Origin: a virus
Taxonomy: Duplodnaviria > Caudoviricetes
Reading direction: 5' to 3' (one strand)
Length of the DNA stretch: 58,265 bases
Virus record (IMG/VR): IMGVR_UViG_3300022179_000289
Span: 1 to 58,265 of that record
A program made the position numbers and the translations under genes. Below, piece by piece: positions 1,771-27,636 of the stretch. Each line of letters begins with the position of its first letter. Position 1 is the first letter of the stretch. The notes below the pieces were generated by a model. The model had not been told where the DNA came from, searched no databases, and worked only from the letters and a program-made list of their open reading frames with translations.

Positions 1771-1791
1771 CACTAGACAAGGAGCAAACTG

Positions 1792-2124: not shown

Positions 2125-2185
2125 TGTTTCGACGGCTGATCGACTGGATACTGGCGCGCCTGTTCGAAGGATATAAAGGAAAGGA

Positions 2186-3043: not shown

Positions 3044-3049
3044 CACCAA

Positions 3050-5426: not shown

Positions 5427-6060
5427 TCCAGACTGGTGGCCTAAGCCGTGGATTTACGACGACTGGCTTCAAGAAAAGCTGCGCCGAGACAAAGAGTGGC
5501 AGAAAGAACACCGTGCGAGGGCGGCGCAGCGGCGCATGGAGCGGATTAATTCTGGGTTCAAAAGCCTAGCGCCCGCCGGACCGACACGTGATCCAGTGGT
5601 GCGAGAGGCACGGCTGGAGGAGTTTAAGGACAACCCGAAGCTACGCAAGTGGGCGGTATGGAAACAATACCGAGCCGGAGGGACCACGCTAAATAAGGTT
5701 GGTGAGGACTTCGGGGTTGGGACGGAGCGAACACGGCAGATGGTTCACAAATGTGAGCGGATACTACGCACCGCTTTGAACCGAGATAACCTTACCTTTC
5801 CAGTGATTGATGAGGTGCGAGAAGCAACGCTAGGTGTTGAGTTCGTGTTCCGTAACGACCTGACATTCAATGTGTTAGACGGCGATCAGAAAGGTTGGGA
5901 ACGCCTTGAGCCTGCTATGCATGACAGCAGTATATATAGAGACCCTGTGCCTTGGTGGAAGCCGGAGTGGGGACTTCAAGATACCTCACCGGCTAAACCC
6001 AAACCCACATACACATATTACAAAACCATTATCGAGAAGGAGCAAAGTGATGGCGATTAA
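5416..6060 (+). CDS. protein with sigma70 region 4.2-like HTH
   Basis: TLNKVGEDFGVGTERTRQMVHKCERILR aligns by eye with RpoD [28 protein letters not shown]. Confidence 0.7.
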   Translation: MSDDPDWWPKPWIYDDWLQEKLRRDKEWQKEHRARAAQRRMERINSGFKSLAPAGPTRDPVVREARLEEFKDNPKLRKWAVWKQYRAGGTTLNKVGEDFGVGTERTRQMVHKCERILRTALNRDNLTFPVIDEVREATLGVEFVFRNDLTFNVLDGDQKGWERLEPAMHDSSIYRDPVPWWKPEWGLQDTSPAKPKPTYTYYKTIIEKEQSDGD

Positions 6061-6580
6061 CCCTACAAACGAAACGCTGATTACGGACTTGGAGTTGAGG
6101 GTGCGGACCGCCAACTGCTTTCGCAATATTAACTTGCAGGTTAATGGTCAGGACGCACCCCCTGCAAAGGTTAAAGATTTCCGGCATTTCACGGATGAAG
6201 AGCTACTGAAGTTTCCTTGGTTTAGCGCAAAGTCATTGGCCGAATGGAAAGAAATCCTGTGGCGCGTCGATAATCCAGAAGAAATCTATGTCGAAAAACC
6301 TGAGCCTTTCCCGATACCACGCAAAACCACCAAGGAAGATAAGTTTCATCCCGTGGTTAAGCTACTGCTCAGCCGGATGAGAAACCGACCAGATGAATTT
6401 TCTGGCACTAGGAATGACTACTACCACAATGAAAAAGGGCCGAGCGCGAGATGGGCTGATGTCGTGCATCAACTGCAAGAACACATGACACCAGATGAAA
6501 AGGCCGCATTGAACAAGGCTGTGCGCGAGATACGCATGATGAGAATACACCACGATGTTATGCAGGAGTTACTGAGATGA
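6050..6580 (+). CDS. protein with N-terminal RNA polymerase alpha-CTD-like domain
   Basis: ITDLELRVRTANCF...EELLKFPWFSAKSLAEWKEIL versus alpha-CTD VDDLELTVRSANCL...[20 protein letters not shown]; start ATG 6050 behind AGGAGCAAAGTG. Confidence 0.75.
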   Translation: MAINPTNETLITDLELRVRTANCFRNINLQVNGQDAPPAKVKDFRHFTDEELLKFPWFSAKSLAEWKEILWRVDNPEEIYVEKPEPFPIPRKTTKEDKFHPVVKLLLSRMRNRPDEFSGTRNDYYHNEKGPSARWADVVHQLQEHMTPDEKAALNKAVREIRMMRIHHDVMQELLR

Positions 6581-6894
6581 AGATTACTAACTATGGCACT
6601 AACTTTGCCGACTACGAGATCGACGAAAACTGCCATCTCTATAAGGTGGAGGTCTTCGACCGAGCAGAGGACGCTGAGCACGGAACCCATACCACGGTGG
6701 AAGGGGAGCTTGTTACCCAAGACAGGGACATGAGCGGCAACCCATCCAGCAGGCGGACAGGCGTAGCCCTGCACTTCTGGAGCGAGGTGAACGAAGCACC
6801 CGAAGATAAGTTCGTCATGTGCATATTCCAGCACAAGGGTGGCGAGTTCATCCAGTTCAAGACACTAACAGAATACGAAGGGAAGGCCGCATGA
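6577..6894 (+). CDS. hypothetical protein
   Basis: 105-aa ORF with AGGAG RBS and ATGA overlaps. Confidence 0.75.
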   Translation: MKITNYGTNFADYEIDENCHLYKVEVFDRAEDAEHGTHTTVEGELVTQDRDMSGNPSSRRTGVALHFWSEVNEAPEDKFVMCIFQHKGGEFIQFKTLTEYEGKAA

Positions 6895-7496
6895 GCGAGT
6901 ATCAATTCACCAAAGACTGGTTCAACTGGGCACCGGAAGTCTGGACGCAGCTTATCCCTATGCTGTCAGGTGAAGCAGGTAAGCGTACCTTTATCGAGAT
7001 TGGCTCCTTTGAAGGCCGCAGCACCGTCTGGATTGCCGAGAACATGATGCAGGATGACGACTGGATTATCTGTATAGATACGTGGGAAGGTGGCGAGGAG
7101 CATGGTGCCGAGGATATGGGGGCTGTCGAGGCGCGGTTTGACCACAATACGGAGTTGTTTAGTGCCAAACACGGTCACGAGCGAGTTATTAACAAGAACA
7201 AAGGCAAGTCAACACATTGGCTAGCTTATGAGATGTACGAACAAAAAACCCAAGCGGACTTCATCTACATCGACGGCAGCCACATTGCCAAGGATGTGCT
7301 GACTGACGCCTGTATGGCTTGGCCGTTGCTCAAGCCCAAGGGGATGATGGTGTTTGACGATTACATGTGGGGCAATCCACGTGACATCCTGCACCGCCCC
7401 AAACCCGCCATCGACGCCTTCTGCAACCTGTTTGCGGAAGAGGCAGAGATTGTCCACGTTGGATACCAACTAGTAGTACGCAAGAAGGGAGAGTAG
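6891..7496 (+). CDS. class I SAM-dependent methyltransferase (Methyltransf_24-like)
   Basis: IEIGSFEGRS motif I, IYIDGSH, LLKPKGMMVFDDY; start ATG 6891. Confidence 0.85.
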   Translation: MSEYQFTKDWFNWAPEVWTQLIPMLSGEAGKRTFIEIGSFEGRSTVWIAENMMQDDDWIICIDTWEGGEEHGAEDMGAVEARFDHNTELFSAKHGHERVINKNKGKSTHWLAYEMYEQKTQADFIYIDGSHIAKDVLTDACMAWPLLKPKGMMVFDDYMWGNPRDILHRPKPAIDAFCNLFAEEAEIVHVGYQLVVRKKGE

Positions 7497-7498
7497 AA

Positions 7499-7675
7499 AT
7501 GGATTACGTAACAGCAGTAGCAGTGTTTGTGTTGGTTTTTGCCAGCTACATGGTGGGGCGGTTCAGTGCCAGCAGTGATACTAGTACCATCAAACGTGAG
7601 AACGAGCGGCTCAACGCCGAACTAAGGGTGCTAACAAAGCGCGACTCCAAGGGTCGCTTCACAGGGGGTAAGTAG
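7499..7675 (+). CDS. small membrane-anchored protein (58 aa, not in ORF track)
   Basis: MDYVTAVAVFVLVFASYMVGRF hydrophobic helix, short coiled coil, RDSKGRF tail. Confidence 0.7.
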   Translation: MDYVTAVAVFVLVFASYMVGRFSASSDTSTIKRENERLNAELRVLTKRDSKGRFTGGK

Positions 7676-7854
7676 TGCCAATAGTAAAACGGACTAGCCG
7701 CGTGTGGACACCTGAAATGGACGCAGAGTTGTTGGAGTATTACAAGCACGGCCTAAGGGCAGCGTACATAGCGGAACGGATGGGGCTTACGATAGCTTCG
7801 GTCGAAGGCCGCTACAGGAAACTAAAAAAGAAAGCAGAAGAAAATGACGGATGA
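7675..7854 (+). CDS. GcrA N-terminal-like / Myb-like HTH protein (59 aa, not in ORF track)
   Basis: GTG start; WTPEMDAELLEYYKHGLRAAYIAERMGLTIASVEGRYRKL. Confidence 0.65.
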   Translation: MPIVKRTSRVWTPEMDAELLEYYKHGLRAAYIAERMGLTIASVEGRYRKLKKKAEENDG

Positions 7855-8617
7855 AATTAAAGTGCCGACCAAGCGACCATCGCTGATGATAGCCACCCCC
7901 ATGTACGGTGGTATGTGCACGGGGTCCTATGTGCAGGGCTTACTGATGACCATGGCCAAGATGCGGGAAATCGGCGTCAACGTGGCGTGGTGTCAGATAA
8001 TGAACGAGAGCCTTATCACCCGTGCACGTAACGAGCTAGCTCGTGTGTTTCTGGCTAGTGACCATGACTACCTCATGTTCATCGACGCTGACATCGGCTT
8101 CGATAGCGAGGCTGTCGCGCAGCTTATGCTGGCCGACAAAGACATCACCTGCGGTATCTACCCCAAGAAGGAAGTGAACTGGGATAGCGTGGAACGTGCG
8201 GCACTGGCTGGCAAGGACGACCTAGCAGCGCATGCCGGAGCCTTCGTCTTCAACATGGTTGGCGGAGAGCATCAAGAAACAGATGAGACGGGTTGCATCG
8301 AAGTCCGCCACGGTGGCACTGGCTTCATGCTCATCAAGCGCGGGGTGTTCGAGCATCTTATCCCCCACGTTCCAACCTATCGCGTATCATCATTCACAGA
8401 CCCAGCGACTGGTGAATACGCCAAGCCTTTGACCCATGAGTTCTTCGCTACGTCTATCGACGAGAGCGGGGCGCTGTTGTCAGAGGATTACCACTTTTGC
8501 GAACTGTTTCGCAAACACGGGGGTAAAATCTACGCCCACCCGTTTATCCGGCTGACCCACACAGGCACCTATGTGTTTGATGGGGACATCCTCAAAAGCG
8601 GCGGCAATCTTAAATAA
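7844..8617 (+). CDS. GT-A fold glycosyltransferase-like protein
   Basis: IATPMYGG, ESLITRARN, YLMFIDADI (DxD), GTGFMLIKR, SEDYHFC. Confidence 0.75.
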   Translation: MTDEIKVPTKRPSLMIATPMYGGMCTGSYVQGLLMTMAKMREIGVNVAWCQIMNESLITRARNELARVFLASDHDYLMFIDADIGFDSEAVAQLMLADKDITCGIYPKKEVNWDSVERAALAGKDDLAAHAGAFVFNMVGGEHQETDETGCIEVRHGGTGFMLIKRGVFEHLIPHVPTYRVSSFTDPATGEYAKPLTHEFFATSIDESGALLSEDYHFCELFRKHGGKIYAHPFIRLTHTGTYVFDGDILKSGGNLK

Positions 8618-8629
8618 GGAGCAAACGAC

Positions 8630-9127
8630 ATGAAGAAGAACAAAGCAGCAGGGATTATGAAACTGTTGAAGCAGGGCTATGCCGCTAGGGAAATCAAAGA
8701 CCGTATGGCAGTGAGCGAAAGCTACATCTATGCGGTTAAGAAGCAGATGGCGGCACTCGCAGCCTTGCAGGGTAAGGGTAAGGAGCGGGTAGTAGGCACA
8801 GCGGAACGTAAGGTTCCCGGCGGTCCCGCTACGATGATACGACCTACTACGGAGGACAGGGTTAATAGAATCCTCGATGAACGCGGAAGTCGGTACGGTA
8901 ACTTCCTCGACCATGCCACAATCACCTATAAACTCAAAGAAGTGGCGCGTAACTTCGCTGAAGAGAAGGGCAAGACGTTCGCCGTGGACCAATGCGAAGC
9001 GATGGATATGATTTTCCATAAGATTGGGCGCATCTTAAATGGTGACCCGAACTACGCTGATAGCTGGATTGATATTGCTGGCTATGCTAAGCTGGTAGCT
9101 GATCGCCTAGAAGGAAAAGTCCGATAA
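8630..9127 (+). CDS. conserved phage protein (DUF6378-like C-terminus, N-terminal HTH)
   Basis: ERGSRYG...KIGRI...DSWIDIAGYA; N-terminal HTH-like segment. Confidence 0.7.
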   Translation: MKKNKAAGIMKLLKQGYAAREIKDRMAVSESYIYAVKKQMAALAALQGKGKERVVGTAERKVPGGPATMIRPTTEDRVNRILDERGSRYGNFLDHATITYKLKEVARNFAEEKGKTFAVDQCEAMDMIFHKIGRILNGDPNYADSWIDIAGYAKLVADRLEGKVR

Positions 9128-9128
9128 C

Positions 9129-9800
9129 ATGACAGCTTGGTCGTACAGCAGTATCAAAACATTCGAGCAATGCCCGAAGAAGTATTTCCACCTCAAGATA
9201 GCTAAGGACGTCAAGGACGAACCCGGCGAGGCGGCTGAATACGGTACTGCTGTACACCTAGCGGCTGAAGAGTTCATTCGAGATGGCAAGCCCATCCCTG
9301 AGAAGTTTGCCTTCATGCGCCCCATCGTGGAACCGCTGGCTGCTAAGCAAGGGGAGAAGCACACCGAGTTACGGCTAGGTGTAGCCAAGACGGATACTGG
9401 CTTTGCCCCTACGACATTCTTCGCCAAGGATGTCTGGTATCGGGGCATCGTGGACTTGCTGATTGTCGATGGAACCAAGGGCTGGATGATCGACTACAAG
9501 ACTGGCAAGAACGCGAAGTATGCGGACATGAAGCAGCTTGACCTGATGGCAGGTGCGCTCTTTATTAAGCACCCTGAGTTGGAAACCATCAAGTCAGCAC
9601 TAGCCTACGTGGTCAGTCAAGAGTTCCCGAAGAAGACCCACAAGCGGGAGCACCTCGATAAATATATGTCCGTGTTCGACGATCAGCTTTATAACCTCGA
9701 CGCCGCTATGGAGAATGGTGTATTCAACCCCAAATCAGGGCCGCTTTGCGGATGGTGCCCCGTCACCTCCTGCGAACATTGGAAACCACGGAGGAAGTGA
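9129..9800 (+). CDS. PD-(D/E)XK exonuclease, Cas4/AddB-like with four Cys
   Basis: SYS..CP, GTAVH, GIVD, IDYKTG, QL..MA, C-terminal CGWCPVTSC. Confidence 0.88.
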   Translation: MTAWSYSSIKTFEQCPKKYFHLKIAKDVKDEPGEAAEYGTAVHLAAEEFIRDGKPIPEKFAFMRPIVEPLAAKQGEKHTELRLGVAKTDTGFAPTTFFAKDVWYRGIVDLLIVDGTKGWMIDYKTGKNAKYADMKQLDLMAGALFIKHPELETIKSALAYVVSQEFPKKTHKREHLDKYMSVFDDQLYNLDAAMENGVFNPKSGPLCGWCPVTSCEHWKPRRK

Positions 9801-10081
9801 TGGCTAGGGATTACCGCAAAGAATACGATACATACCAAGGTACCGCACAGCAGAAGAAGAACCGCGCTGTACGCAACGCAGCCCGTGCCAAGATGGCGAA
9901 GGCGGGTAAAGCCAAGAAGGGTGACGGCAAGGATGTCGGCCACGTCGTGGCGCTCGACAAGGGCGGTAGCAACAAGACTGGCCTACGCATGGTCAGCAAG
10001 TCAGCCAACCGATCCTTCGACCGAGACGCCAAGAAGAACCTGATTTCGGAAACAAGTCCACGAGAACGCAAAAAGAAATAA
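9800..10081 (+). CDS. small basic HNH-like endonuclease
   Basis: DGKDVGH...KGGSN...LRMVSKSANRS resembles a beta-beta-alpha-Me motif; start ATG 9800 (TGATG). Confidence 0.65.
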   Translation: MARDYRKEYDTYQGTAQQKKNRAVRNAARAKMAKAGKAKKGDGKDVGHVVALDKGGSNKTGLRMVSKSANRSFDRDAKKNLISETSPRERKKK

Positions 10082-10101
10082 GCGTACCAAGGAGCAAGCT
10101 G

Positions 10102-11646
10102 GTGCAAATCGTTGAAAACAAAGCGTTACTCATTAACGCACAAGACCCGTGCCTCATTACAGACAACATCCACAAGAGCGCAGAAGTAGCCGAAGGCGTG
10201 GTTGTCAAATGGGGACATAATGAAACGGAAATCCTAGCGCAGCTTGGCTTCGCAGATACCCCCTCGCCTATGCTCAAGTCCTACCAGTGGACGGGTAAGT
10301 TCGAGCCGTTCAAGCACCAGAAGACCACGGCGTCATTCCTATCTATCCGCAAGCGGGCGTTCTGCTTCAACGAGCAGGGCACAGGCAAGACAGCCAGCGT
10401 GATTTGGGCAGCCGACTACCTCATGAAGAAGGGCTTGGTGAAGCGCGTGCTGGTACTATGCCCCCTGTCGATCATGAAGTCGGCGTGGCAGCAGGACCTG
10501 TTCAAGTTTGCTATGCACCGTTCGTGTAGCGTAGCGCATGGTGCAGCCAAGCAGCGGGAGAAGATCATTAACTCTGGGGCTGACTTCGTCATCCTTAACT
10601 TTGATGGGCTGGCTGTGGTCAAGGACACAATCGCCAAGGGTGGTTTCGACCTTATCGTGATTGACGAGGCCAACGCCTACAAGAACCCAACGACCAACCG
10701 CTGGAAGATATTGAACCGCTTGGTGCGCGACACCGACCCACGCCTGTGGATGTTGACTGGTACGCCAGCGGCGCAGTCTCCGGTGGATGCCTATGGTCTG
10801 GCCCGTATGATGGACCTGCCGGGATGTCCCAAATATTATGGCGTCTTCCGTGACAGCGTGATGCGCAAGGTGACCCAGTTTAAGTGGACGCCGAAGAGCA
10901 ACGCGCAGGCAATCGTCCATAAGGTGTTGCAGCCAGCCATCCGGTTCGAGAAGAAGGATTGCTTGGACCTACCGTCCGTAACGCACATCGAGCGCGAAGC
11001 GCCCCTCACCCCGCAGCAGCGCAAATATTATAACGAGCTTAAGAACCAGTTGCTGTTCGAAGCCAGTGGCGAGGAGGTCAGCGCGGTCAACGCTGCGACC
11101 AAACTTAACAAGCTGCTCCAGATTAGCGGAGGTGCAGTCTATACGGATAATGGTGAGGTACTTGAGTTCGACGTATCCAACCGCCTGAACGTGGTGTTGG
11201 AAGTCATCGAGGAAGCCAGCCATAAGGTGCTGGTCTTCATACCGTTCACCCACACCATCGAGCTTCTGCGCGCCCGTCTGGAGAAAGAAGGCATCACGTG
11301 CGATGTCATCAACGGCAAGGTACCAGTCAACAAGCGCAGCGATATCGTCGATAAGTTCCAGCGTGAGCCAAACCCACGCGTCCTACTCATTCAGCCCAAG
11401 GCAGCAAGCCACGGCCTGACCCTGACGGCAGCCGACACCATCATCTGGTACGCACCCACAACGAGCGTGGAAACCTATCTACAGGCAAATGCCCGTATCG
11501 ACCGTGCGGGGCAGAAGAACGCCATGACCGTGGTGCACATCAAGGGCAGCCCTGTAGAAGAGAAGCTTTACAGCATGTTGCAGGGCAACATCGACAACCA
11601 CCAGAAAATTATCGACTTATACAAACAAGAACTTGACACTGTATAG
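10102..11646 (+). CDS. SNF2-family superfamily 2 helicase
   Basis: QGTGKT, VIDEAN, LTGTP, HGLTL, QANARIDRAGQ. Confidence 0.93.
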   Translation: MQIVENKALLINAQDPCLITDNIHKSAEVAEGVVVKWGHNETEILAQLGFADTPSPMLKSYQWTGKFEPFKHQKTTASFLSIRKRAFCFNEQGTGKTASVIWAADYLMKKGLVKRVLVLCPLSIMKSAWQQDLFKFAMHRSCSVAHGAAKQREKIINSGADFVILNFDGLAVVKDTIAKGGFDLIVIDEANAYKNPTTNRWKILNRLVRDTDPRLWMLTGTPAAQSPVDAYGLARMMDLPGCPKYYGVFRDSVMRKVTQFKWTPKSNAQAIVHKVLQPAIRFEKKDCLDLPSVTHIEREAPLTPQQRKYYNELKNQLLFEASGEEVSAVNAATKLNKLLQISGGAVYTDNGEVLEFDVSNRLNVVLEVIEEASHKVLVFIPFTHTIELLRARLEKEGITCDVINGKVPVNKRSDIVDKFQREPNPRVLLIQPKAASHGLTLTAADTIIWYAPTTSVETYLQANARIDRAGQKNAMTVVHIKGSPVEEKLYSMLQGNIDNHQKIIDLYKQELDTV

Positions 11647-11661
11647 TCACCCTCGTAAGCA
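11632..11661 (+). promoter_or_regulatory. putative promoter/operator P3
   Basis: TTGACA 11633-11638 then CTGTATAG (same extended motif as P1 and P2); weak -10 TAAGCA at 17 nt. Confidence 0.6.
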
Positions 11662-11685
11662 GGGGGAATAACGAAGGAGCAAACC

Positions 11686-12090
11686 ATGACTGATAAGATA
11701 CCCGTAGAGAAGCTCGTTGCTGCGTACCGCAAAATCCGTGCGGCCATCGCAGAGGAGGAAGAAGCATTCGAAGCTAAGGTCGCTGGCCTTAAGGAAAATC
11801 TGGAGCTTGTATCCAAGGAGCTTCTGGACTTCTGCAACGACCAGAACATTGACAGCATTCGCACACCTGCTGGCACCCTATCAAGGCGCGTTCAGTCCCG
11901 ATACTGGACGACTGACTGGGAGCAGATGTACAAGTTTATTGAAGAGCATAACGTGCCGTTTCTACTTGAGAAGCGCCTGCACAATGGTAACGTGAAGCAG
12001 TTTTTGGAGGAGAATCCGGACGTCCTCCCGGTCGGTCTACAGGTCGATAACAAGTATGTAGTCCACGTCCGCAAACCGACAGAGAAGTAA
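11686..12090 (+). CDS. conserved replication-module protein, coiled-coil N-terminus
   Basis: 134-aa ORF with strong RBS, between helicase and SSB-like gene. Confidence 0.8.
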   Translation: MTDKIPVEKLVAAYRKIRAAIAEEEEAFEAKVAGLKENLELVSKELLDFCNDQNIDSIRTPAGTLSRRVQSRYWTTDWEQMYKFIEEHNVPFLLEKRLHNGNVKQFLEENPDVLPVGLQVDNKYVVHVRKPTEK

Positions 12091-12100
12091 GGAGCAAACT

Positions 12101-12127
12101 ATGACCAAGGAGAAACCAAATGAATGA
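12101..12127 (+). CDS. putative 8-aa leader ORF MTKEKPNE
   Basis: ATG directly after AAGGAGCAAACT; stop overlaps the first codons of the next gene. Confidence 0.4.
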   Translation: MTKEKPNE

Positions 12128-13037
12128 GATAACTATTTTTGACCAGCCCACTGAGGGCGGCTTCGTTCGGCGTGAGTCGGGCCGCTTGGACCGCATGGGT
12201 GGTAGCGGCATCACATCGCGCCGTATCAAGATCAGCAACGGACGCGTCTTCAAGCGCGTCGTGAATGGCGAAGAGATTGGTAAGGCTGTTGACAAGCAGC
12301 TTGATGTCATCATCGTCGATTGGCTGCTTGAGCCATCACGCAAGTTCTATGCTGGTGCTTATGATAAGAACGCCAAGGCAACGCTACCTGACTGCTGGTC
12401 GAACGACGGTATTAAACCGGAAGCATCAGCCAAGGCTCCGCAGGCTAAGACCTGCATGGAATGCCCCAAGAACGTGAAGGGTTCCGGTTCCAACGGTCAG
12501 GGTAAAGCTTGCCGCTATGAGCGTCGTCTGGCTGTCCTCGTTGCTGGTGATCCATCGGGCGATGTCTACCAGATCACGGTCCCCGGCGGGTCTTTGTTTA
12601 GTAACAACAACGGCAATCTTTATGGGTTCGAGGGTTATAAGAAATTCCTTCTGGCCAATAACGCAGCACCCGATACAGTCATAACGAGCCTTATCTATGA
12701 CCCTGAAACCGACACTGCCAAGCTGTGGTTCAAGGCAGCGAGCTTTTTGAACGCGCAGCAAGCTGCTGCTGTGGATGTTGCGCAGAAGGACCCTACCACA
12801 GACCGCTTACTCAAGCTGACGGCTGCGGCTGTGGATGGGGCCAAGGCTATTGCTGCTGCTGTTGCTGAACCTGTGGCTGCCATCGCACCGCCCACTGCGT
12901 CGGTTAACCCCTTCGGTGACGACGACGATGAGGACGAAGTTCCCGTTAAGCGCGCTGCCAAGAAGGAAACCCCCGCTGCTCCCAAGGCTGAACTGAATGA
13001 AGTTCTTGGTGACTGGCTCGATGAGGATGAGGATTAA
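12120..13037 (+). CDS. putative single-stranded DNA-binding protein
   Basis: Replication-module position, beta-rich core with Cys cluster, Ala/Pro linker, acidic tail DWLDEDED. Confidence 0.65.
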   Translation: MNEITIFDQPTEGGFVRRESGRLDRMGGSGITSRRIKISNGRVFKRVVNGEEIGKAVDKQLDVIIVDWLLEPSRKFYAGAYDKNAKATLPDCWSNDGIKPEASAKAPQAKTCMECPKNVKGSGSNGQGKACRYERRLAVLVAGDPSGDVYQITVPGGSLFSNNNGNLYGFEGYKKFLLANNAAPDTVITSLIYDPETDTAKLWFKAASFLNAQQAAAVDVAQKDPTTDRLLKLTAAAVDGAKAIAAAVAEPVAAIAPPTASVNPFGDDDDEDEVPVKRAAKKETPAAPKAELNEVLGDWLDEDED

Positions 13038-13040
13038 GCC

Positions 13041-13280
13041 ATGCAAGGTTACACCATCCGTGTAGCCGAGGCGACTAATAACGCTGACGGTAGCCTCGTG
13101 GGAGTCCAGCTTGGACGCTTGTGTATCAAGCACGACATCTCGGTGTCGCAAGTGGCTCGTGACCTCGGGGTTACCCGTCAGACGATTTATAGTTGGTTTA
13201 GTGGAAGGTCCGAGCCGCAGGCGTATTACGCTACGTCTGTGCGCCGGATGCTCGAAGAGCTTACACAAGCCAACACCTGA
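13041..13280 (+). CDS. Cro/XRE-family HTH regulator
   Basis: ISVSQVARDLGVTRQTIYSWFSGRSEP. Confidence 0.85.
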   Translation: MQGYTIRVAEATNNADGSLVGVQLGRLCIKHDISVSQVARDLGVTRQTIYSWFSGRSEPQAYYATSVRRMLEELTQANT

Positions 13281-13336
13281 CCCTCGGTACAATTATAAAT
13301 TATTAGCGAGCGCTGCTCGCAACGGAGAAGATTTCG

Positions 13337-16177
13337 ATGGAGAACGTAGACCTCCTAGACTTTGTACAGCCAGCCACTGGTTGGTTCGCTGTACTTGGTA
13401 TTAAGGGGCCACGTGACGTCCGACAGGAGCTAGTTTCCACACGAAGGGAAGTTGACGAACTGGTAGAGCGATATGTCGCAGAAGGCCGCAATGTCTTCTT
13501 CGGTGTAGCCAAGTACGCAACGGGGGATAACCGCACCAAGGAAAACGTCAGAGCGCTTAAGGCTTTCTGGCTGGATATTGATTGTGGGGAAGCCAAGGCA
13601 CAGGTCAATCCGGAGACGGGTAGGCCGGATGGGTATATCAATCAGGCCGCTGGTTTGCAGGCACTTAAAGAGTTTTGTGCTGTCGTTGGGCTACCAAAGC
13701 CCACGCTGGTCAACTCAGGTGGTGGGCTGCATGTTTACTGGCCGCTGGAAGAAGAGATCACGCGGGCCGAATGGGAGCCTGTAGCTGAACGATTCAAGGA
13801 TATATGCCGTACCCAGAACTTCTATGTGGACGACAAGGTGTTTGAGGTAGCGCGTATCTTGCGCATACCGGGCACTTATAACTTCAAGGAGGAAACGCCA
13901 CGGCCCGTAAGCATAATAGCGGCTGGCAAGCCAACAACGCTGGATGATTTCCGGCGCATACTCGGCGTGGTGGATAAGCCCAAGCGGTCTATCTTCGACG
14001 ACAACTATGAGGCCAGTCCTCGCGAACTCGCGATGTACAACGGCATTGGCTACAGCTTTAAACGTATCATGCAGCGCACGGCCAAGGGGGACGGGTGCAA
14101 CCAGCTTCTCCACGCCTATAAGAACCGATCCACGATTGGCTATTACGAGTGGTTCTATGCGCTGTCCGTGGCTGCGATGTGCGAGGATGCTGACAAGGCT
14201 GTCCACATGATGTCGGATGGTTATCCAGACTATGACCCAGATACGGTTGAGAGCAAGGTAGCTACCATCCGGAAGGCGACTAGCTGTGCCAAGTTCAAGA
14301 GCGTCAACCCAGAGCTATGCGAGGGCTGCCCACACTTTGGTAAGATCATGGGGCCAAAGGACTTAGGTAGGCAGATCAAGGAAGCCACGAACGACATAGT
14401 CGAGGTGGAAACCGAGGAGGGCGAAGTAGAAGCCTTCACCGTGCCGAAATATCCCAAGCCTTATTACAGGGGCGACGGAGGCGGTATCTGGTGGGAGCCG
14501 AGCAAGAAGGCCGAAGACGATGAGGCTATGCCAGTACAGGTCTATGAGTACGACCTCTATCCGGTGAAGATCATGGATGATAGTATAGATGGCAACGTCG
14601 TGCTGTTTCGTTTGCACCTTCCCCATAACAACACGAAGGAATTTATTTCCCCGCTCAAGCACGTGCTTGACCCAACGGAACTACGTAAGGTGCTCAGTTC
14701 TAAGGGCGTCATCAGCACTGGTAAAAAGCAGGCACACCTGTTGGAGTTCACGGCACTTATGCTCAAAGACCTCCAGATCAAATATAAGGAGCAAATCATG
14801 CGTCAGCAGTTCGGCTGGGCCGACAACAGCAGTAAATTCATCATCGGCAGCCAAGAGATCAGCGTCGATGGGATTGCCTATTCACCACCATCCAAGACCA
14901 CGAGACCGCTTGCCAAATTCATGGGGCCAGTTGGCTCGTTCGAACGCTGGAAGGAAATCTGGGCGCTATATAACACACCGGGCCTCGAACCTCATGCCTT
15001 TGCCGCGCTCAGTGCCTTTGGGTCACCGCTGCTCAGGTTCCTCGAACAGACAGGGGCGGTTATCAACCTGTTCAATGCTCGTTCCGGTACTGGTAAATCC
15101 ACGATCCTTAATATGGTGAACAGCGTCTATGGGCATCCCAAGGAACTGCGCTTGAAGCAGAATGACACGCTCAATGGGCGCTTGCAGTGGGTCGGTATAC
15201 TTAACAACATCCCGCCGACGATGGACGAACTGACCAACATGGGTCCGCTGGAATATTCGGATTTCCTCTACGCCCTGTCGAACGGTAAGGGTAAGGAGCG
15301 CATGCAGGCTGGTACCAACGAGCTTCGTGAGAACAATACCACATGGCAGAGCATCACGGTGGCTACATCCAACGCTTCGTTTGCGGAGAAGCTCTCGGTC
15401 ATCAAGAACAACCCAGAAGGCGAACTCATGCGCCTGATTGAGTACCCCATCAATAAGGTCGAGGCGCTTAACACGGCTGGGGCCAAGCAGATGTTCGACC
15501 GTGACCTGTTTCACAACTATGGCCATGCTGGGGTGCATTTCACGCGGTATGTGCTTGAGAATATGGAGCGCGTCCAGCGCAGGTGTAACAACCTGCAAGA
15601 GAAAATCGACAGGGAACTTCAGCTTGAGCCGAAGGAACGCTTCTGGTCTGCAACGACAGCAGCCAACATCGCAGGCGGTCTTGTGGCTAACGAGTGTGGG
15701 ATCATGGACTGGGATATGGACCGCGTCTACTTGTATGCGTGTGGCTTGATTGACGACCTACGTAAGAACGGCGTGACCCCAGTGGACAACGTGCGTCAGA
15801 CGGTGGCTGACTATCTGTACCGCAACATCCAGAACATTCTCGTGGTCAACGGGGAAGTGGACCGTCGGACCAATATGCAGGCCGCACCGTTGCGCGAACC
15901 GAAGGGTGAGTTGCTGATTCGCATCGAGCCGGACACCAAGCGCATGTTCATCATCGCCAAGTCGTTCAAGGACTACTGCGTCAAGTTCCAGCTTAACTAC
16001 AACGAAACCGTCAAGAAGCTGGAGACGGAGGGGCGCATCATCGAGAAGAAACCCATCCGGCTGTCCAAGGGGACGGCGATTAGCGGGGAACCAATCCATT
16101 GCCTGTGGTTCAAGATTGACGACGATTTCGTAGATACCACGCAGTACGAAGAGGCTGGAAAGGTCGATGCTGATTGA
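13337..16177 (+). CDS. primase-helicase (AEP/RepB-like primase, Cys cluster, DUF927-type region and P-loop ATPase)
   Basis: WLDID, NSGGGLHVYW, RILRIPGTYN; C...CEGCPH; FGW; SGTGKST Walker A, MDE Walker B. Confidence 0.88.
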   Translation: MENVDLLDFVQPATGWFAVLGIKGPRDVRQELVSTRREVDELVERYVAEGRNVFFGVAKYATGDNRTKENVRALKAFWLDIDCGEAKAQVNPETGRPDGYINQAAGLQALKEFCAVVGLPKPTLVNSGGGLHVYWPLEEEITRAEWEPVAERFKDICRTQNFYVDDKVFEVARILRIPGTYNFKEETPRPVSIIAAGKPTTLDDFRRILGVVDKPKRSIFDDNYEASPRELAMYNGIGYSFKRIMQRTAKGDGCNQLLHAYKNRSTIGYYEWFYALSVAAMCEDADKAVHMMSDGYPDYDPDTVESKVATIRKATSCAKFKSVNPELCEGCPHFGKIMGPKDLGRQIKEATNDIVEVETEEGEVEAFTVPKYPKPYYRGDGGGIWWEPSKKAEDDEAMPVQVYEYDLYPVKIMDDSIDGNVVLFRLHLPHNNTKEFISPLKHVLDPTELRKVLSSKGVISTGKKQAHLLEFTALMLKDLQIKYKEQIMRQQFGWADNSSKFIIGSQEISVDGIAYSPPSKTTRPLAKFMGPVGSFERWKEIWALYNTPGLEPHAFAALSAFGSPLLRFLEQTGAVINLFNARSGTGKSTILNMVNSVYGHPKELRLKQNDTLNGRLQWVGILNNIPPTMDELTNMGPLEYSDFLYALSNGKGKERMQAGTNELRENNTTWQSITVATSNASFAEKLSVIKNNPEGELMRLIEYPINKVEALNTAGAKQMFDRDLFHNYGHAGVHFTRYVLENMERVQRRCNNLQEKIDRELQLEPKERFWSATTAANIAGGLVANECGIMDWDMDRVYLYACGLIDDLRKNGVTPVDNVRQTVADYLYRNIQNILVVNGEVDRRTNMQAAPLREPKGELLIRIEPDTKRMFIIAKSFKDYCVKFQLNYNETVKKLETEGRIIEKKPIRLSKGTAISGEPIHCLWFKIDDDFVDTTQYEEAGKVDAD

Positions 16178-16361
16178 GGGCGTAACCTATGAAATTAACT
16201 GGCGGGGGTTCAAAAAAGGGACCTCCGTCTTCTTCCCGTGCTTGGATTCAGATCGCGCCAAAGCACAACTAATGGTGGTCACCGAGCGCCTGAGAGTCAA
16301 GGTATTGACGAAAGAGGTCATCGAAGAGGGAATTAGGGGTTTACGCGTCTGGCGGATGTGA
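16167..16361 (+). CDS. hypothetical protein, last gene of the early arm
   Basis: 64-aa ORF overlapping the primase stop; ends GLRVWRM. Confidence 0.75.
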   Translation: MLIEGVTYEINWRGFKKGTSVFFPCLDSDRAKAQLMVVTERLRVKVLTKEVIEEGIRGLRVWRM

Positions 16362-16368
16362 GTATATA
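16340..16368 (+). promoter_or_regulatory. putative promoter for the small RNA
   Basis: TTTACG 16340-16345, 17-nt spacer, TATATA 16363-16368; no ORF downstream on this strand. Confidence 0.6.
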
Positions 16369-16374
16369 GCCCGG

Positions 16375-16434
16375 GACAGTTTGCTCCTGTCGCTTGATCT
16401 GAGACCCCGCTGGCCCTCCCGGCGGGGTCTTTTT
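16375..16434 (+). ncRNA. candidate trans-acting anti-RBS small RNA (~60 nt)
   Basis: Hairpin GACAG-TTTGCTC-CTGTC; 16377-16388 is the reverse complement of AGGAGCAAACTG; flanked by a promoter and an intrinsic terminator. Confidence 0.65.
16402..16434 (+). terminator. intrinsic terminator at the convergence of both arms
   Basis: AGACCCCGCTGG-CCCTC-CCGGCGGGGTCT then TTTT. Confidence 0.9.
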
Positions 16435-19400
16435 ATTGTTCCTTCTTCACCCCGTTATAGACCGAGTTGAACGCTGCGTAGTACTCGTTCTTCTGGCCAC
16501 GGTAGTAATCCAGCACTGCTTTCTCTTCCTCATCCGTCTTGGCCAAAGCCATGGATGCCTTCTGCTCTTTATTGATTCGGTCAAGATTGGCTTCAACAGC
16601 CTTGTATGCGTCCATGATGCGCGGGTCGGTATCCATGTAAAACTCAGCGCCTTGGGCCATCTGCTGCTCTGGCGTTAGCTTGCTGAGACGGTTCATAATC
16701 TGCCGGACAGTACTGGAGTTCTCATAATATTTGGTTTGTGGCGCGTACTCAGACCCTGTACCCACGAAGCTCTTGATGCCGGGGATGTCAGCCATACCCT
16801 CGGCTTCTTTGATACCAACCATCTGCTTGGCAAGCTGGTAAGGCCCACCGAAATAGCTCTCGATAAAGTGGCGATACACCTCAGGCTGGAAGTCCATACC
16901 CCCGCTGACTGCTGCGGAGCCGCCAGTTACTGAGTTAAGCGTCTTAGCCAAGCCCTTCCAGAAGTCCCCTGTGGTTTCACGCCCAAGCTCAGAGCGCGGT
17001 GCGCTGTCAAACGTACGCTCCTTGTAGATGGGCGACCCGAAGAAGTTCCGGTTGATGATGTTTTCCATGAAGGGCTTACCAACCAGCGGCGTCATCGCAA
17101 TCCCAACGGACTGGACATCTGTGCCGGGGATACGCGTGGGCAGCATAAGGCTGGTAAAGCCGGACACAAGCCCTGTGGTTGCTTCAGAAGGCGCTATGGC
17201 CCCAGCCATCACGTCGCCAATCTTGTTACCAACGAACTTGAAATAGCCCAGCATCGGGTCAATCGGTATCTTGGTGTAGTCATCCGGACCGTCACCGTAG
17301 TATATGATGAAGCGGCTTGCGCGCAGGCCCGCACCAAGGTCTTGGTCGAGATGGTCCTCTTGCCCGTCATCATCGGCATCACCGGCCTGCATCGCGTTCC
17401 AGATTGACTCCATCACACCGACAGCAATCATCCCACCGAACACCTTAGTAAGTGCTCTGGGGTTCGAAGCGATACGCAAGGTTTTACGGGTACTCTCAAC
17501 GCCAGCGCCGAAGAACGGGAAGATGAGGTCGAGGCCGCGTGCCATTTCACCACGACGCGTAAGGTTCAGTGAAGAGTCCAGAGCGAGGCGCGCTGCATCC
17601 GCAGGCTCGATGCCGTAATGTGTAGCCGCCCGGTAGGTTGCAAAACGTGCGTTAAGGTCCATGACATCAGCCAGACCGTCCACCCACTGGTTCAACCCTT
17701 CCCAGAGTTTAGCCGGACGCTCCTTGGCGGGCAGGTTCTCTAGCCCTTTCATAGCCCGGATAGCACGTGAGGCCACACTGGCGCTCTCCTCGACATTCAA
17801 GAAGCGCGTTTGGAGCGGTGCACCACCAGCGTCAATCATCTCCTGCAACTGCTTGCTCGTTGCGTCATCAAGCGGGGCTTTACCAAACACATAGCGGCCA
17901 ATGGCAGAACCTGTGCCGGAGAATGGCAGGCTGTACAGGAACGTTCGAGCCGCCAGATTTTTACCAAAAGCAGGACTACCCTTGAGGTTCTGGTTGGCCA
18001 TAGCCGTTGCAATCGCAGCCGACGTATCGCGGAACGGAGCCACAAACATCAGATACAAGGGGTTCTTGTACGTCAGCATCCCCTTCATGAAGTTGTTAAT
18101 GATGGCGAGCGTTTTGAGCGCACCTTTCATCTGCTCCGGACGCATATTGGCAAACATACGCTTGAGGTCTGCGCCTGCACCCTGCTCCGCAAACTCAACG
18201 TAGTAATTGGCCCCATTGTCTTTGATGAGCGTATAAGTACCGGGCGGGCTGTTCCGGTACGCCTTCTCCATGTCGATGGCTTCCCAGCGCCCACCGGGCG
18301 TGTCGTTGCTCACCATCACCCGCTTGGGGTTGGTTTTGGTGTAGACGTTGAGGATACCCTCAAAAATGCTGGGGTCTTTTTTCCATGCGCGAATAATCGG
18401 GCGCATGGCTTGGTTCTCGACGTTGCTACGTACCGTCGCTTCTGCATCTTGGAACAGATTAAAGAGCGGGTGGAACGGCATCGAGCCACGACCAAAGGCT
18501 TGGCGGATTTCATTCACAGTCCCACCGGGGGCCGCAGCGCGCAACGCACGCATAGCCTCTGCTTGGCGGCTCTCGATCTCGGTATCGCCCTCTAGGTCTG
18601 ATGTGAGCATATCGCCATCCTTGGCGAAACCCTTGAGTGGCATGTAATACTTCTGCTTGGCACGCATGGCATCAGCCTGCGCCTGTGACATTTTCCCAGC
18701 CTTGACGCGTTCAGCCAACGTGAAATCCACAAGGGCATCAGCCTTACGTGCGACTTGGTTGAGCTTGGCGAGCTTACCTTCTTCCTTGAACTTGGCGAGA
18801 ATTTCGCTGGCCTGCGCCGTTGTGAGACCTGAGCCGCCTTCAGGGAAGTTTTCAGGGTTGGTTTCAGCCACATCCCGGTTGCGATCCGGAGCGCTGCGTG
18901 CCCATAGGTAAAGACCCAAGTCGCCGAGATCGACGCCAAGTTTGCCTGTCATCTCGATGATCGGGTCGAAGAAGTCCCGCTGGAGGTTACGCGATTTACC
19001 AGCCTGTTGGGTTTGCAGTGTTTCTAACTTAGCCGCAGTCTGAAACTCTTCGGGAAGCGTCTCATAACCAAGGCTGGACTGCATCCAAGTGTCAAGCGCC
19101 TTGGAACCTTCGAAGCTATCAGCAAGCTTCCGCCGCGTTCTAGCCAACCAATTAGGGACGAGGTTGAGGGGAGTCCTCTGCGGCTCAAGCGTAGGCTCTG
19201 GGGTAGGTTCCGGTGTTAGTGGACTCGGCTCCGCATCTGGGCCGACCGTAGGAGGAACAGGAGGTACCCCACCGACTCCCACTGCTTCCGGTCCAACTCC
19301 GCTAACCCCGCTGGGAGCGGCACCGACAACTTCGGGTCCTCCACTAGGCGGAACGCTAACTCCAACTCCTTCGTCGATAGATGTTGTAGGTCTTCCAGTT

Positions 19401-26943: not shown

Positions 26944-27636
26944 TCACACGGCCTTCGACACAAAGAACGCTTCGACAATAGCCGAAGGTGTAGCTGGGAT
27001 GGCTGGCGTCACCCCCGCTGAGTAAGTCACAGCAGGGAGATGCTCCATAACTACAGAAGTGTCGGATACCCGCCACATAACTTCGACCCAAACACCTGCT
27101 GCCTCTGCGTAACCACTAAATGGCGTCACTGCGATAAGGTAAGAAGGGTCACCAGTCGATTTACGTGGTGGAATAGTGAAGCGGCTGTTTGAGTTGGGCA
27201 CATCCGTCGTGGTAGTGCCGTTGTTATACCGCAGCCAGACATCCACCGACTGCGCATCATTGGTCGGGTTCTTAAATGACAGGCTGTATATGAACATGTA
27301 CATACCCGGAGACGCGAAGGTAACCTGCGTGTCGTTAGCGCCTGTGATTGATATACCATCTGCGAAAGACGTAATCTCCAGTTCTACGGCGTAGGCTTGG
27401 TCGATAGCTGCCGCTGTCTGATCTACGTTGCTCAAGAACTGGTTATGTGGGAACGTCAGACCAATACCGCTACCATAGAAAAAATCGGCTGTATATGACT
27501 GCGCGTTGTTCGGAGTGCGTGAATCCAACTGTGAGAAATAAGTTTCGATGACGCGGATAACCTGCCGCATATACTGTGCGTCGTAGTCCGAGGGTGGGTT
27601 GGGTATCGGAGCAGCTTTGAACTTGTCTAATGCCAT
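26944..27636 (-). CDS. putative tail protein (coiled coil plus beta-sandwich)
   Basis: Directly downstream of the nozzle-like gene; 230 aa. Confidence 0.6.
   Translation of the reverse strand: MALDKFKAAPIPNPPSDYDAQYMRQVIRVIETYFSQLDSRTPNNAQSYTADFFYGSGIGLTFPHNQFLSNVDQTAAAIDQAYAVELEITSFADGISITGANDTQVTFASPGMYMFIYSLSFKNPTNDAQSVDVWLRYNNGTTTTDVPNSNSRFTIPPRKSTGDPSYLIAVTPFSGYAEAAGVWVEVMWRVSDTSVVMEHLPAVTYSAGVTPAIPATPSAIVEAFFVSKAV

Follow-up and report, generated by a model that had tools for sequence, protein, structure and literature searches.

Occlusion of a ribosome-binding site (RBS) by a small RNA is textbook regulation. RsaE/RoxS of the Firmicutes are sRNAs with C/U-rich loops that target the Shine-Dalgarno (SD) sequences of many mRNAs, while bacterial 3'-end sRNAs such as DapZ, CpxQ and SdhX are either transcribed from a promoter inside the upstream coding sequence or released by RNase E. 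As presented in the relevant part of a 2025 review, the c4 antisense RNA of phages P1 and P7 carries short complementary stretches, thought to lie in loops, that pair around the RBS of a phage mRNA and block its translation, and the phage-encoded small RNAs covered there have as targets either single phage genes or genes of the host (PMC12197685). In the portion of the T4 literature drawn upon here, the 122-aa protein RegA competes with ribosomes for the initiation regions of about 30 early and middle phage mRNAs, recognising loosely conserved A+U-rich sites (PMC3014915).

The element described here lies within the window, the whole 58,265-nt stretch of viral DNA that was analysed, in a 71-nt gap (16362–16432) separating the convergent arms. 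Like c4, it would provide a phage-encoded small RNA with a complementary stretch in a loop directed at the RBS of phage mRNA, the pairing here being predicted. In contrast to c4, which in that account serves one operon (ant) in temperate-phage immunity, a single seed matches 7–16 early/replication RBSs; the element moreover sits at the junction of convergent arms and does not reach the Rfam threshold for c4. The likeness to RegA, as far as that source describes it, is one of logic only, a phage product acting at many early initiation regions, and is a candidate role for this locus: RegA is a protein, whereas the putative RNA reads a sharply defined SD-plus-spacer word, and no family membership is implied. 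Similarly to bacterial 3'-end sRNAs, the element comes right after a stop codon, has its terminator in common with the mRNA and carries a conserved seed upstream of the terminator hairpin. However, those RNAs are chromosomal, mostly Hfq-dependent and directed at unrelated host mRNAs, whereas the putative RNA described here is encoded by a virus and finds its best matches at RBSs of the transcription unit that it ends. An anti-SD-like C/U-rich motif in a hairpin loop and multiple RBS targets, predicted here, are shared with RsaE/RoxS. In contrast to these sRNAs, which address the G-rich SD core alone, specificity here would come from a spacer extension of 4–5 nt coevolving with the targets. Full-text literature searches found no description of such an RNA.

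The gap between the convergent arms

The features named for this gap in a preliminary description, TTTACG-17-TATATA, a hairpin, a terminator and the lack of an ORF, are all present, one set of coordinates having been slightly corrected (Table 1). The last gene of the + (early/replication) arm ends with TGA at 16359–16361. The minimum free energy fold containing the seed hairpin reaches −32.9 kcal/mol (z −3.73) and was equalled by none of 200 shuffles; of the five seed nucleotides matching the SD core, two are trapped in the stem. The terminator stem spans 16401–16431, with 13 pairs (nine G-C) and a loop of five, and continues on the + strand into TTTTTATTG, so that a G+C-rich stem-loop directly followed by a U run, the signature of an intrinsic terminator, is found on that strand. 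This U run is the one visible feature that bears on dependence on an RNA chaperone such as Hfq or ProQ. The − strand also folds into the hairpin (z −3.14); no T run follows the terminator stem on the − strand, where CAGATCAAGCG is found instead, and the terminator has the same (+) orientation in every canonical relative. No credible ORF exists in the gap. A coding reading is ruled out because the sole frame, 29 codons from a TTG (16381–16470), runs through the terminator and because linker lengths differ between relatives. The reading of an RBS on the − strand was likewise rejected, AGGAGCAAAC being followed by no start codon on that strand.

Table 1. Features of the gap and candidate target sites in the window.
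Feature	Position	Strand	Description
Last gene of the + (early/replication) arm	16167–16361	+	ORF and translation; conserved 64-aa protein, no family assigned
−35-like hexamer TTTACG	16340–16345	+	Within G-L-R codons at the end of the 64-aa ORF
−10-like hexamer TATATA	16363–16368	+	Directly after the stop codon; 17-nt spacer from TTTACG
Seed hairpin, 5 bp	16375–16391	+	GACAG 16375–16379, loop TTTGCTC 16380–16386, CTGTC 16387–16391; from fold; conserved with compensatory stem changes
12-nt seed CAGTTTGCTCCT	16377–16388	+	Exact reverse complement of extended SD AGGAGCAAACTG
Intrinsic terminator	16401–16436	+	13-bp G+C-rich stem, loop CCCTC, T run; from fold and terminator scan
Weaker candidate target AGGAGCAGACC	879–889	+	Before ATG 890 (59 aa)
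Candidate target AGGAGCAAACTG, 12/12	1408–1419	+	Before ATG 1420 (51-aa ORF); duplex −21.2 kcal/mol
Candidate target AGGAGCAAACTG, 12/12	1780–1791	+	Before ATG 1792 (110 aa; endonuclease/resolvase-like PHROG matches); duplex −21.2 kcal/mol
Weaker candidate target GGGAGCAAGCT	4852–4862	+	Before ATG 4863 (187 aa)
Candidate target AGGAGCAAAGTG, 1 mismatch	6038–6049	+	Before ATG 6050 (176 aa)
Candidate target AGGAGCAAACGA, 2 mismatches	8617–8628	+	Before ATG 8630 (165 aa)
Candidate target AGGAGCAAGCTG, 1 mismatch, G:U-compatible	10090–10101	+	Before GTG 10102 (SNF2-family helicase, 514 aa); duplex −21.7 kcal/mol
Candidate target AGGAGCAAACC, 2 mismatches	11675–11686	+	Before ATG 11686 (134 aa); RBS of the orthologue follows loop type in four other genomes
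AGGAGCAAACTA, 1 mismatch	12090–12101	+	Followed by ATG 12101, which begins a tiny frame only; next gene start at 12120, 19 nt downstream
AAGGAGCAAATC	14786–14797	+	Before in-frame internal ATG 14798 of the primase/helicase ORF; also encodes conserved peptide KYKEQIM; absent from the preliminary list

Seed, candidate target sites and their covariation among relatives

The extended SD word reported to precede two start codons exactly, with its reverse complement in the hairpin, occurs at all three places, and the weaker sites listed with it (879, 4852, 6038, 8617, 10090, 11675 and 12090) are real and lie before start codons. Duplexes of the hairpin with 11 motif sites, ten on the + arm and one at 37444 on the − strand, have predicted energies of −15.7 to −21.7 kcal/mol; the mean for 21 other + arm starts is −9.7 and their best −18.4 kcal/mol. 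Pairing of at least 8 nt with the seed is confined to 7 of about 33 crudely called + arm starts, and the PolA and primase starts in the window do not display it. The chance figure of 1e-5 originally attached to the match holds for one pre-chosen 12-mer but disregards that the word was chosen post hoc. With up to two mismatches the 12-mer has 9 sites where 5.18 ± 2.22 are expected, and 7 shuffles in 100 attain 9 sites. Nine or more contiguous Watson-Crick pairs to the 17-nt hairpin are found at 12 sites, compared with 3.4 when the seed is shuffled, and 8 shuffles in 1000 attain 12. When G:U pairs are allowed there is no enrichment (152 versus 137 ± 63, the observed value being reached by 108 of 300 shuffles) and the G:U-compatible matches thus add no statistical weight to the original proposal. 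An unbiased count of GGAG+4 words on the + strand returns GGAGCAAA as the commonest, the early arm containing 7 of its 8 copies; this word is absent from the four commonest of the − strand. A scan of duplex energies along the entire window, using the 27-nt 5' part, is dominated by long bulged duplexes and places just 3 RBS sites in its top 25; it is non-discriminating and no weight is placed on its result. The evidence inside the window alone is only moderate, and it is the relatives that carry the real weight.

Relatives were found through the primase gene (80 of about 365), 66 of them with at least 300 nt of downstream DNA. A hairpin with a GCTCC loop is present in 51 of these 66, the loop being TTTGCTCC in 34, TTGCTCC in 13 and NNTCGCTCC in 4, with none in 15. 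GCTCCT is invariant while linkers, flanks and terminator sequences diverge, and thus a short seed is conserved in an otherwise divergent RNA, the pattern of a trans-acting sRNA. Over 21 distinct sequences with a 7-nt loop, all 105 of 105 stem pair cells are standard pairs, both partners being exchanged in two of the stem pairs (16 cells; GC/AU and AU/CG/GC). The covariation score was reached by none of 500 shuffles, and slid registers are 42–73% paired. The commonest form of the hairpin recurs as an exact 17-mer in at least 119 viral contigs, at least 89 of which preserve the same context of small-ORF end, TA element, hairpin, linker and terminator. A homologue of the 64-aa protein adjoins the element in every relative examined. 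This protein, considered as a candidate RNA chaperone, has no Pfam or PHROG match; its confident AlphaFold2 model (pLDDT 92.1) found no match in the PDB with Foldseek at E ≤ 0.001, and the best hit of a wide VIA-align search has Z 4.8.

A covariance-model scan of the whole window against Rfam 15 at gathering thresholds returned no match, and a relaxed scan of 16300–16460 gave a best score of 18.6 bits against thresholds of 108 and 58.8. The Rfam search suggested in the preliminary description thus identifies no family, c4 included. Among 50,697 phage records, blastn with the region yielded nothing useful, and no cultured member of this phage group is found there. By primase protein, Pseudomonas phage Rollin comes closest among named phages (27.9% identity); it has neither a gap between converging genes nor such an element. 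A promoter-plus-hairpin scan of 185,579 species genomes gave one match, on an 8,257-bp contig of a MAG labelled Actinomycetota; Actinomycetota as host was set aside, this single contig being too short to trust.

The loop and the SD extension form matching pairs: TTTGCTCC with GGAGCAAA, TTGCTCC with GGAGCAAC and TCGCTCC with GGAGCGA. The commonest early-strand GGAG+4 word of the TTTG-loop genomes is GGAGCAAA, in G005 with 11 copies, all in the early arm, as well as in the window; in G001, which has a TTG loop, it is GGAGCAAC, with 8 copies, all in the early arm. Two hairpin-less genomes have no such dominant word. Across 48 non-redundant loci, GGAGCAAA, GGAGCAAC and GGAGCGA occur, in that order, 77, 5 and 1 times in class A (28 loci), 3, 8 and 0 in class B (7 loci), 1, 3 and 6 in class C (3 loci) and 3, 3 and 0 in class D (10 loci), and GGAGCAAA does not occur once on the − strand of these loci. 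In 15 further class C contigs GGAGCGA recurs and the next base often matches the loop, CGAA accompanying an ATT loop, CGAC the AGT and GGT loops and CGAT an AAT loop. For one orthologous gene the RBS is GGAGCAAACC both in the window and in G005, whereas G001 has GGAGCAACC, G002 (loop AATCGCTCC) has GGAGCGATTT and the hairpin-less G003 has GGAGATTAAA; the per-gene comparison of these dialects rests on this one gene because no orthologues of the other motif-bearing genes of G001 were found in the other genomes. The 5' flank of the motif also follows the stem type: GA precedes GGAGCAA at 8 of the 17 sites of G005 and at 3 of 11 sites in GAGAG-stem loci, compared with 1 of 63, 0 of 22 and 0 of 14 sites with GGAAG, GACAG and GAAAG stems, respectively. 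When seeds are swapped between genomes and at least nine Watson-Crick pairs are demanded, G001 has 8 + strand sites for its own seed against 0–1 for the seeds of the window or G005, and the window has 10 sites for its own seed against 3 for that of G001.

The covariation check in related phages that the preliminary description had proposed thus came out in its favour: loop type tracks the early-arm SD extension, and hairpin-less lineages are without the motif. Discordant cases occur. L006, a 95% relative, has a shorter TTGCTC loop yet keeps GGAGCAAA RBSs; L219, L220, L222 and L224 have a mismatch at the eighth position; and L043 keeps TTTGCTCCTT outside a canonical hairpin. A tree-aware association test had 3 independent pairs only, two changing in the expected direction and one unchanged (p 0.5). 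Seed and target change together, in few independent lineages and with L006 and L004 discordant.

A second stretch of the same putative RNA, in its linker, is complementary over 9–15 nt to the start region of the primase gene in three lineages. The complementarity to the SD-to-AUG stretch extends over 13–15 nt in L012, L013, L014 and L023 and over 9–10 nt in L017, L019, L020 and L021, and L055 achieves it through a different 10-mer. One compensatory A-U / G-C difference separates clades. Linker–primase complementarity of at least 9 nt is found in 9 of 35 loci compared with 57 of 10,500 shuffled tails. In the discordant L004, a 96% relative, the second-seed motif is present and its target is absent. 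The element, its conservation and structure and the coupling between seed and RBSs are established by these computations. The central anti-RBS idea, a seed conserved in the hairpin loop and linked to a set of early-gene RBSs, is well supported by the comparative sequence evidence, and the second, primase-directed seed of some relatives strengthens it.

Origin of the putative RNA and competing readings

Promoters of the sigma-70 type were judged by hexamers near TTGACA and TATAAT, a 16–18 nt spacer and A2 and T6 of the −10. TTTACG-17-TATATA fits the consensus at 8 of 12 positions and is absent from the promoter scan, which demands 9 of 12 together with T at −10 position 6. Among 81 distinct relatives, the −10-like element has T1 in 77 and A2 in 78, with T6 in only 22 (59 are without the final T); the spacer is 16–17 nt in 78 and the distance from the −10-like element to the hairpin 6–7 nt in 71. 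The Leu codon inside the −35 is TTA in 62 and TTG in 18 of the 81, never CTN, whereas among the 230 Leu codons of six long window ORFs 13 are TTA and 31 TTG; the adjacent Arg codon shows free variation at its third base. This Leu codon is under synonymous constraint, which argues for a role at the nucleotide level, although part of the −35 conservation is due to coding since the hexamer lies inside the conserved peptide RGLRVWR. Judged by its sequence the promoter is weak. The RNA start near 16374–16375 given in the preliminary description is a candidate one, most relatives lacking the final T of the −10-like element. The position fits a DapZ-like layout, with a promoter in the upstream coding end and a terminator shared with the mRNA, the promoter evidence being mixed. 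An early-to-late switch had been read from the TTTAC −35; its basis is one similar site upstream of the late arm, and the hexamer lies within conserved coding sequence, so that we regard the switch as not supported.

These properties bear directly on whether the element is ever a separate RNA. It could instead be just the 3' untranslated end of the early polycistronic mRNA, with neither promoter nor processing, its seed folding back in cis, or pairing between mRNA copies, at upstream RBSs, or the element only stabilising the 3' end. The position directly downstream of the last early gene, the terminator common to both, the poor −10-like hexamer uncalled by the scan and the −35 within conserved codons all suit this reading. 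However, a plain 3' untranslated region offers no obvious reason for a TA at a fixed 16–17 nt from the −35 and 6–7 nt from the hairpin, nor for a Leu codon that is TTA or TTG in 80 of 81 relatives while neighbouring third positions vary, and we regard it as unlikely. It would still be an anti-RBS RNA mechanism and differs from the best explanation solely in the origin of the RNA. Improbable to a greater degree is that the hairpin serves as a protein-binding site, either as an RBS mimic (GGAAGGAGCAAACUUCC) carried by late-operon transcripts that read through on the − strand, where it would titrate a factor reading the early RBS motif, for example a CsrA-like or RegA-like translational regulator, or as a single-stranded DNA replication hairpin beside the primase gene. 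The hairpin does fold on the − strand, late transcripts could read into it since the terminator lacks a T run there, a single protein reading both the RBSs and the loop would also produce covariation, and the conserved 64-aa protein, with no known fold match, is always adjacent. Against this stand the + oriented terminator after the hairpin in all canonical contexts and an internal G-T stem pair in L057, which is valid on the + strand only and would be A-C on the − strand. The CAAGC variants of class A (13 versus 77 of CAAAC type) and the CGATT opposite a GG loop in L047 keep pairing by way of G:U but would break the rule of identical motifs. A same-sense decoy cannot explain a second seed antisense to the primase SD-to-AUG region, and a DNA-level role leaves the SD distance of the motif from start codons unexplained.

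The complementarity might finally be a by-product of a C/U-rich loop facing purine-rich SD sequences, plus shared ancestry, in an ordinary terminator region with an accessory hairpin. CTCCT necessarily complements any AGGAG SD, relaxed matching gives no enrichment, the 12-mer with up to two mismatches is by itself not significant and the tree-aware test, with its 3 independent pairs, is underpowered. Nevertheless, the match reaches past the SD core into the spacer, and the spacer shifts with the loop (one-base deletion, T-to-C change, flank changes) at several unlinked, partly non-orthologous genes per genome. The spacer motif is missing in hairpin-less lineages and a second, unrelated seed-target pair was found; this reading is already disfavoured and is very improbable.

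Proposed mechanism and meaning

The explanation we favour, and consider rather probable, is that early-gene RBSs are bound by base pairing and repressed by a + strand RNA some 60 nt long, which is either transcribed from its own promoter or released by cleavage of the early 3' untranslated region. We infer that this RNA is produced, that it pairs in the cell and that repression follows. Its 5' end would lie at or beside the hairpin, set by the weak promoter embedded in the last part of the preceding gene; alternatively the early polycistronic mRNA may be cleaved near its 3' end to release the RNA. The intrinsic terminator would form its 3' end. The 5' hairpin would display the anti-RBS seed GUUUGCUCCU, partly in the loop, for pairing with AAGGAGCAAAC, the SD and the spacer after it, in front of some of the phage's own early/replication genes. 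Since pairing over the RBS would keep 30S subunits off, translation of this gene set would be lowered, either providing feedback or bringing about an early shut-off. In the seed, the CUCCU part resembles what the 16S rRNA tail offers, and the GUUUG extension may confer specificity for phage RBSs with the matching spacer dialect.

In a large uncultured phage group of at least about 90 contigs, the sRNA could then be a regulon-wide translational regulator of the phage's own early/replication genes, the RNA counterpart of T4 RegA. It would use a private dialect of SD plus 4–5 nt of spacer that drifts in lockstep with its targets (CAAAC, CAAC, CGAT/CGAC/CGAA), second seeds against the primase-helicase start having been gained repeatedly. 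This wider proposal is as apt to fail as to hold. The pairing is unusually testable because natural compensatory mutants exist, in the form of three or more seed/RBS dialects and the second seed. If the proposal is true, these genomes hold a natural series of orthogonal sRNA/RBS pairs, which might serve as parts for synthetic translational control. The element marks a conserved non-coding gene in a phage group widespread among metagenome-derived viral contigs, and would represent a new phage regulatory layout, in which a viral RNA addresses its own early gene set through a shared, co-evolving RBS extension and so parallels what the T4 RegA protein achieves.

Architecture and conservation of the intergenic element

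The window (58,265 bases of a viral contig, with an estimated completeness of 93%) is organised in two converging arms, with + strand genes occupying positions 1–16361 and − strand genes positions 16433–58096, and the sole gap between the arms is the site of the element. No close named phage was found for the window in the phage collection searched. The TTTACG-17-TATATA site, hairpin and terminator that the preliminary description placed in the gap are all present at 16340–16436.

Main features of the window
Feature	Position	Strand	Remarks
Family-A DNA polymerase (PolA)	3050–4873	+	
SNF2 helicase	10102–11646	+	
DUF927 primase/helicase	13337–16177	+	
−35-like TTTACG	16340–16345	+	17 nt from TATATA
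−10-like TATATA	16363–16368	+	with TTTACG straddles the stop codon of a 64-aa ORF
Seed hairpin GACAG/TTTGCTC/CTGTC	16375–16391	+	
Terminator	16401–16436	+	13-bp stem and T run
1567-aa LPD38-domain protein		−	first in the − arm by position
Collagen-repeat protein		−	within the − arm

Relatives comprised 80 of approximately 365 loci matching the primase protein, at 100% to 47% identity, and for 66 of the 80 the available downstream sequence was 300 nt or longer. Of these 66, 51 have a hairpin, its core GCTCCT invariant, in the interval that separates the small ORF from the terminator; the hairpin's non-coding surroundings, the linker and the terminator vary freely among these loci. The stem takes the forms GACAG/CTGTC, GGAAG/CTTCC, GGAAAG/CTTTCC, GAGAG/CTCTC and AGAAG/CTTCT. 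Among 21 distinct sequences with 7-nt loops, standard pairs occupy 105/105 stem cells and two stem pairs are altered on both sides; the covariation score was reached by 0/500 shuffles, and slid registers pair far worse. The commonest 17-mer form of the hairpin occurs in at least 119 viral contigs. Thus, a retained hairpin with compensatory stem changes in many contigs indicates that the element is real, structured, widespread and non-coding. Among the 119 matches listed, the context is that of the window in 89, a gp32-like CDS in 26 and miscellaneous in four. At the 26 loci (within L082–L200, e.g. L082, L099 and L103) GGAAGTTTGCTCCTTCC is antisense to a conserved gene of unrelated contigs, which from its translated peptide we take to encode a gp32-like ssDNA-binding protein, a reminder that the 17-mer GGAAGTTTGCTCCTTCC by itself is not diagnostic of the element. 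A scan of 185,579 species genomes for promoter and hairpin together gave a single match (L230), on an 8,257-bp contig assigned to an Actinomycetota MAG; this is probably a phage contig and is unreliable as a host clue.

In the window and all canonical relatives, the terminator's T run is confined to the + strand, and a G-T stem pair in one relative's hairpin is valid on that strand only. The promoter-like site of the window has a consensus score of 8/12. Across relatives the −10-like element has a near-invariant TA, 16–17 nt from the −35 and 6–7 nt from the hairpin, and the Leu codon within TTTACG is TTA or TTG in 80/81 distinct sequences; TTA is rare among the window's genes, and the third positions beside this codon vary. 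The final T of the −10-like hexamer, retained in just 22/81 distinct relatives, counts against a standard promoter. As this evidence is mixed, we keep both origins for the RNA, transcription from its own promoter and cutting from early mRNA; in either case the predicted product is hairpin, linker and terminator, with the seed partly sequestered within the hairpin stem. The likeness to a late promoter earlier proposed for the TTTAC −35 has a single counterpart: TTTACA-18-TATAAG (58134–58161, −), which precedes the first − strand gene and is the one further TTTAC...TATA site in intergenic DNA of the window.

The conserved 64-aa protein (16167–16361) always adjoins the element and displays invariant W12, P24-C25-L26 and a C-terminal RGLRVWR-type tail. 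It matched no Pfam or PHROG family, and structure comparison of its confident AlphaFold2 model (beta-alpha-beta-beta) gave no convincing match. Two relatives (L009 and L010) have an additional hairpin of ~30 nt inserted after the stop codon and ahead of the seed hairpin, its loop again C/U-rich (CCCCTCC or GCTCCTCC).

Complementarity of the seed to early-gene RBSs

The 12-mer AGGAGCAAACTG, whose reverse complement is 16377–16388, lies directly before starts 1420 and 1792, bearing out the 12/12 match claimed in the preliminary description; the shorter matches it listed are real related words preceding starts 890, 4863, 6050, 8630, 10102 and 11686 and the tiny frame 12101. Counting G:U pairs adds no statistical support, pairing with G:U allowed being not enriched over expectation in the window. 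Sites with at most two mismatches to the 12-mer number 9 against 5.2 expected, and those with at least nine Watson-Crick pairs 12 against 3.4, a count of 12 being reached in 8/1000 shuffles. The duplex, 10–12 nt over SD and spacer, has energies of −15.7 to −21.7 kcal/mol at 11 motif sites, among which 37444 belongs to the − strand, against a mean of −9.7 kcal/mol at other + arm starts. Pairing of at least 8 nt is found at 7 of ~33 + arm starts, as crudely called, including those of the SNF2 helicase and a resolvase-like protein and excluding PolA. GGAGCAAA is the top GGAG+4 word of the + strand, with 7/8 copies in the early arm, and is absent from the four commonest such words listed for the − strand. 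The early arm of the window does have a private RBS word, and the seed/RBS match judged on the window alone is suggestive rather than compelling.

Several neighbouring sites were observed. At 12090–12120 the perfect-type motif AAGGAGCAAACT precedes an ATG (12101) opening a very short frame only; the real start, 12120, follows 19 nt further on with an SD of its own, AAGGAGAAACCAA. Motif and frame may form a leader peptide or decoy RBS. At 14786–14800, inside the primase/helicase ORF, AAGGAGCAAATC is followed by an in-frame ATG (14798), from which a shorter, helicase-only protein of 459 aa could arise, with T7 gene 4 as a precedent; this motif may be constrained by coding, since it also specifies the conserved peptide KYKEQIM. 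A near-consensus promoter, TTGACA-17-TATAAC, lies at 1090–1118, and a G+C-rich hairpin, GGGGGGCCTTGCGCCCCCC (1381–1399), directly ahead of the first perfect AGGAGCAAACTG RBS.

The seed/RBS covariation that the preliminary description looked for in related phages was found, loop and word shifting together, with some discordant loci. Five relatives were compared as complete or long genomes. G005, with a TTTG loop, has 11 copies of GGAGCAAA, all in the early arm (16 RBSs with GGAGCAA[AG]), while G001, whose loop is one T shorter, has eight copies of GGAGCAAC, all in the early arm, and zero GGAGCAAA; two hairpin-less genomes have no over-represented RBS word. No orthologues of the word-bearing genes of G001 were found in the other genomes, so unrelated genes adopt the local word. 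G001 (the record behind L063) also carries, at 27109–27160, two tandem TAGGAGCAAC[AG]GCGGCTTTT with no start codons after them.

Early-strand RBS words by loop in 48 non-redundant loci
Loop	GGAGCAAA	GGAGCAAC	GGAGCGA
TTTGCTCC	77	5	1
TTGCTCC	3	8	0
TCGCTCC	1	3	6
No hairpin	3	3	0

The window gene starting at 11686 and its orthologues have the RBS GGAGCAAACC, GGAGCAACC, GGAGCGATTT or GGAGATTAAA, depending on the loop found in each genome. The TCGCTCC pattern recurs in 15 further contigs, in many of which the adjoining position agrees with the loop as well; this eighth position is mismatched in four loci of the class. Tracking extends to the base pair that flanks the SD, GAGGAG flanks occurring with CTCCTCTC arms. 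In one discordant locus, L006, the loop is shortened and the RBSs are unchanged; a homopolymer error or a recently acquired change could account for this. Independent lineage changes in loop and word are few, and the tree-aware test was underpowered, with three independent pairs, two concordant and one unchanged.

A second seed against the primase start

Several lineages carry, in the linker that joins hairpin to terminator, a stretch complementary to the primase/helicase start region, 3 kb upstream. In L012, L013, L014 and L023 the match is 13–15 nt long and extends from the SD-like GGTGAG to the AUG inclusive; it spans 9–10 nt in L017, L019, L020 and L021, and in L055 another 10-mer covers the AUG. 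Between clades, a single position shows a compensatory change. Matches of at least 9 nt occur in 9/35 loci against 57/10,500 shuffled tails. The window's RNA is without this second seed, and L004 is discordant, with the motif present and the target absent. By its sequence complementarity, the second seed shows a predicted RNA family antisense to + strand translation start regions. A small hairpin, GCGAGC-GCT-GCTCGC (13306–13320), lies just upstream of the window's primase SD; a hairpin of different sequence (CGGG....CCCG) occupies this place in relatives, and that of the TTGCTC clade, GGAAG-TGCAAA-CTTCC, resembles the complement of the seed hairpin.

Proposed mechanism and relation to known systems

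The seed would pair over 10–12 nt of SD and spacer and thereby exclude the 30S subunit, the canonical action of RBS-binding small RNAs; on balance, some of the early genes would be translated less. Repression, its timing and any chaperone role are inferred. The Rfam family whose existence had been left open was not found, a covariance-model search matching no family to the element, and a full-text literature search found no description of it. The phage-derived small RNAs described in sections of a review from 2025 (VpdS, PreS, 24B_1, the PAK_P4 antisense RNAs, sar, OOP, aQ, AsxR and c4) act on single phage genes or host genes (PMC12197685). The nearest known system in mechanism is c4 of P1/P7; the nearest in logic is a protein, T4 RegA, which competes with ribosomes on about 30 mRNAs (PMC3014915). 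Taken together, the evidence from comparison of relatives is strong.
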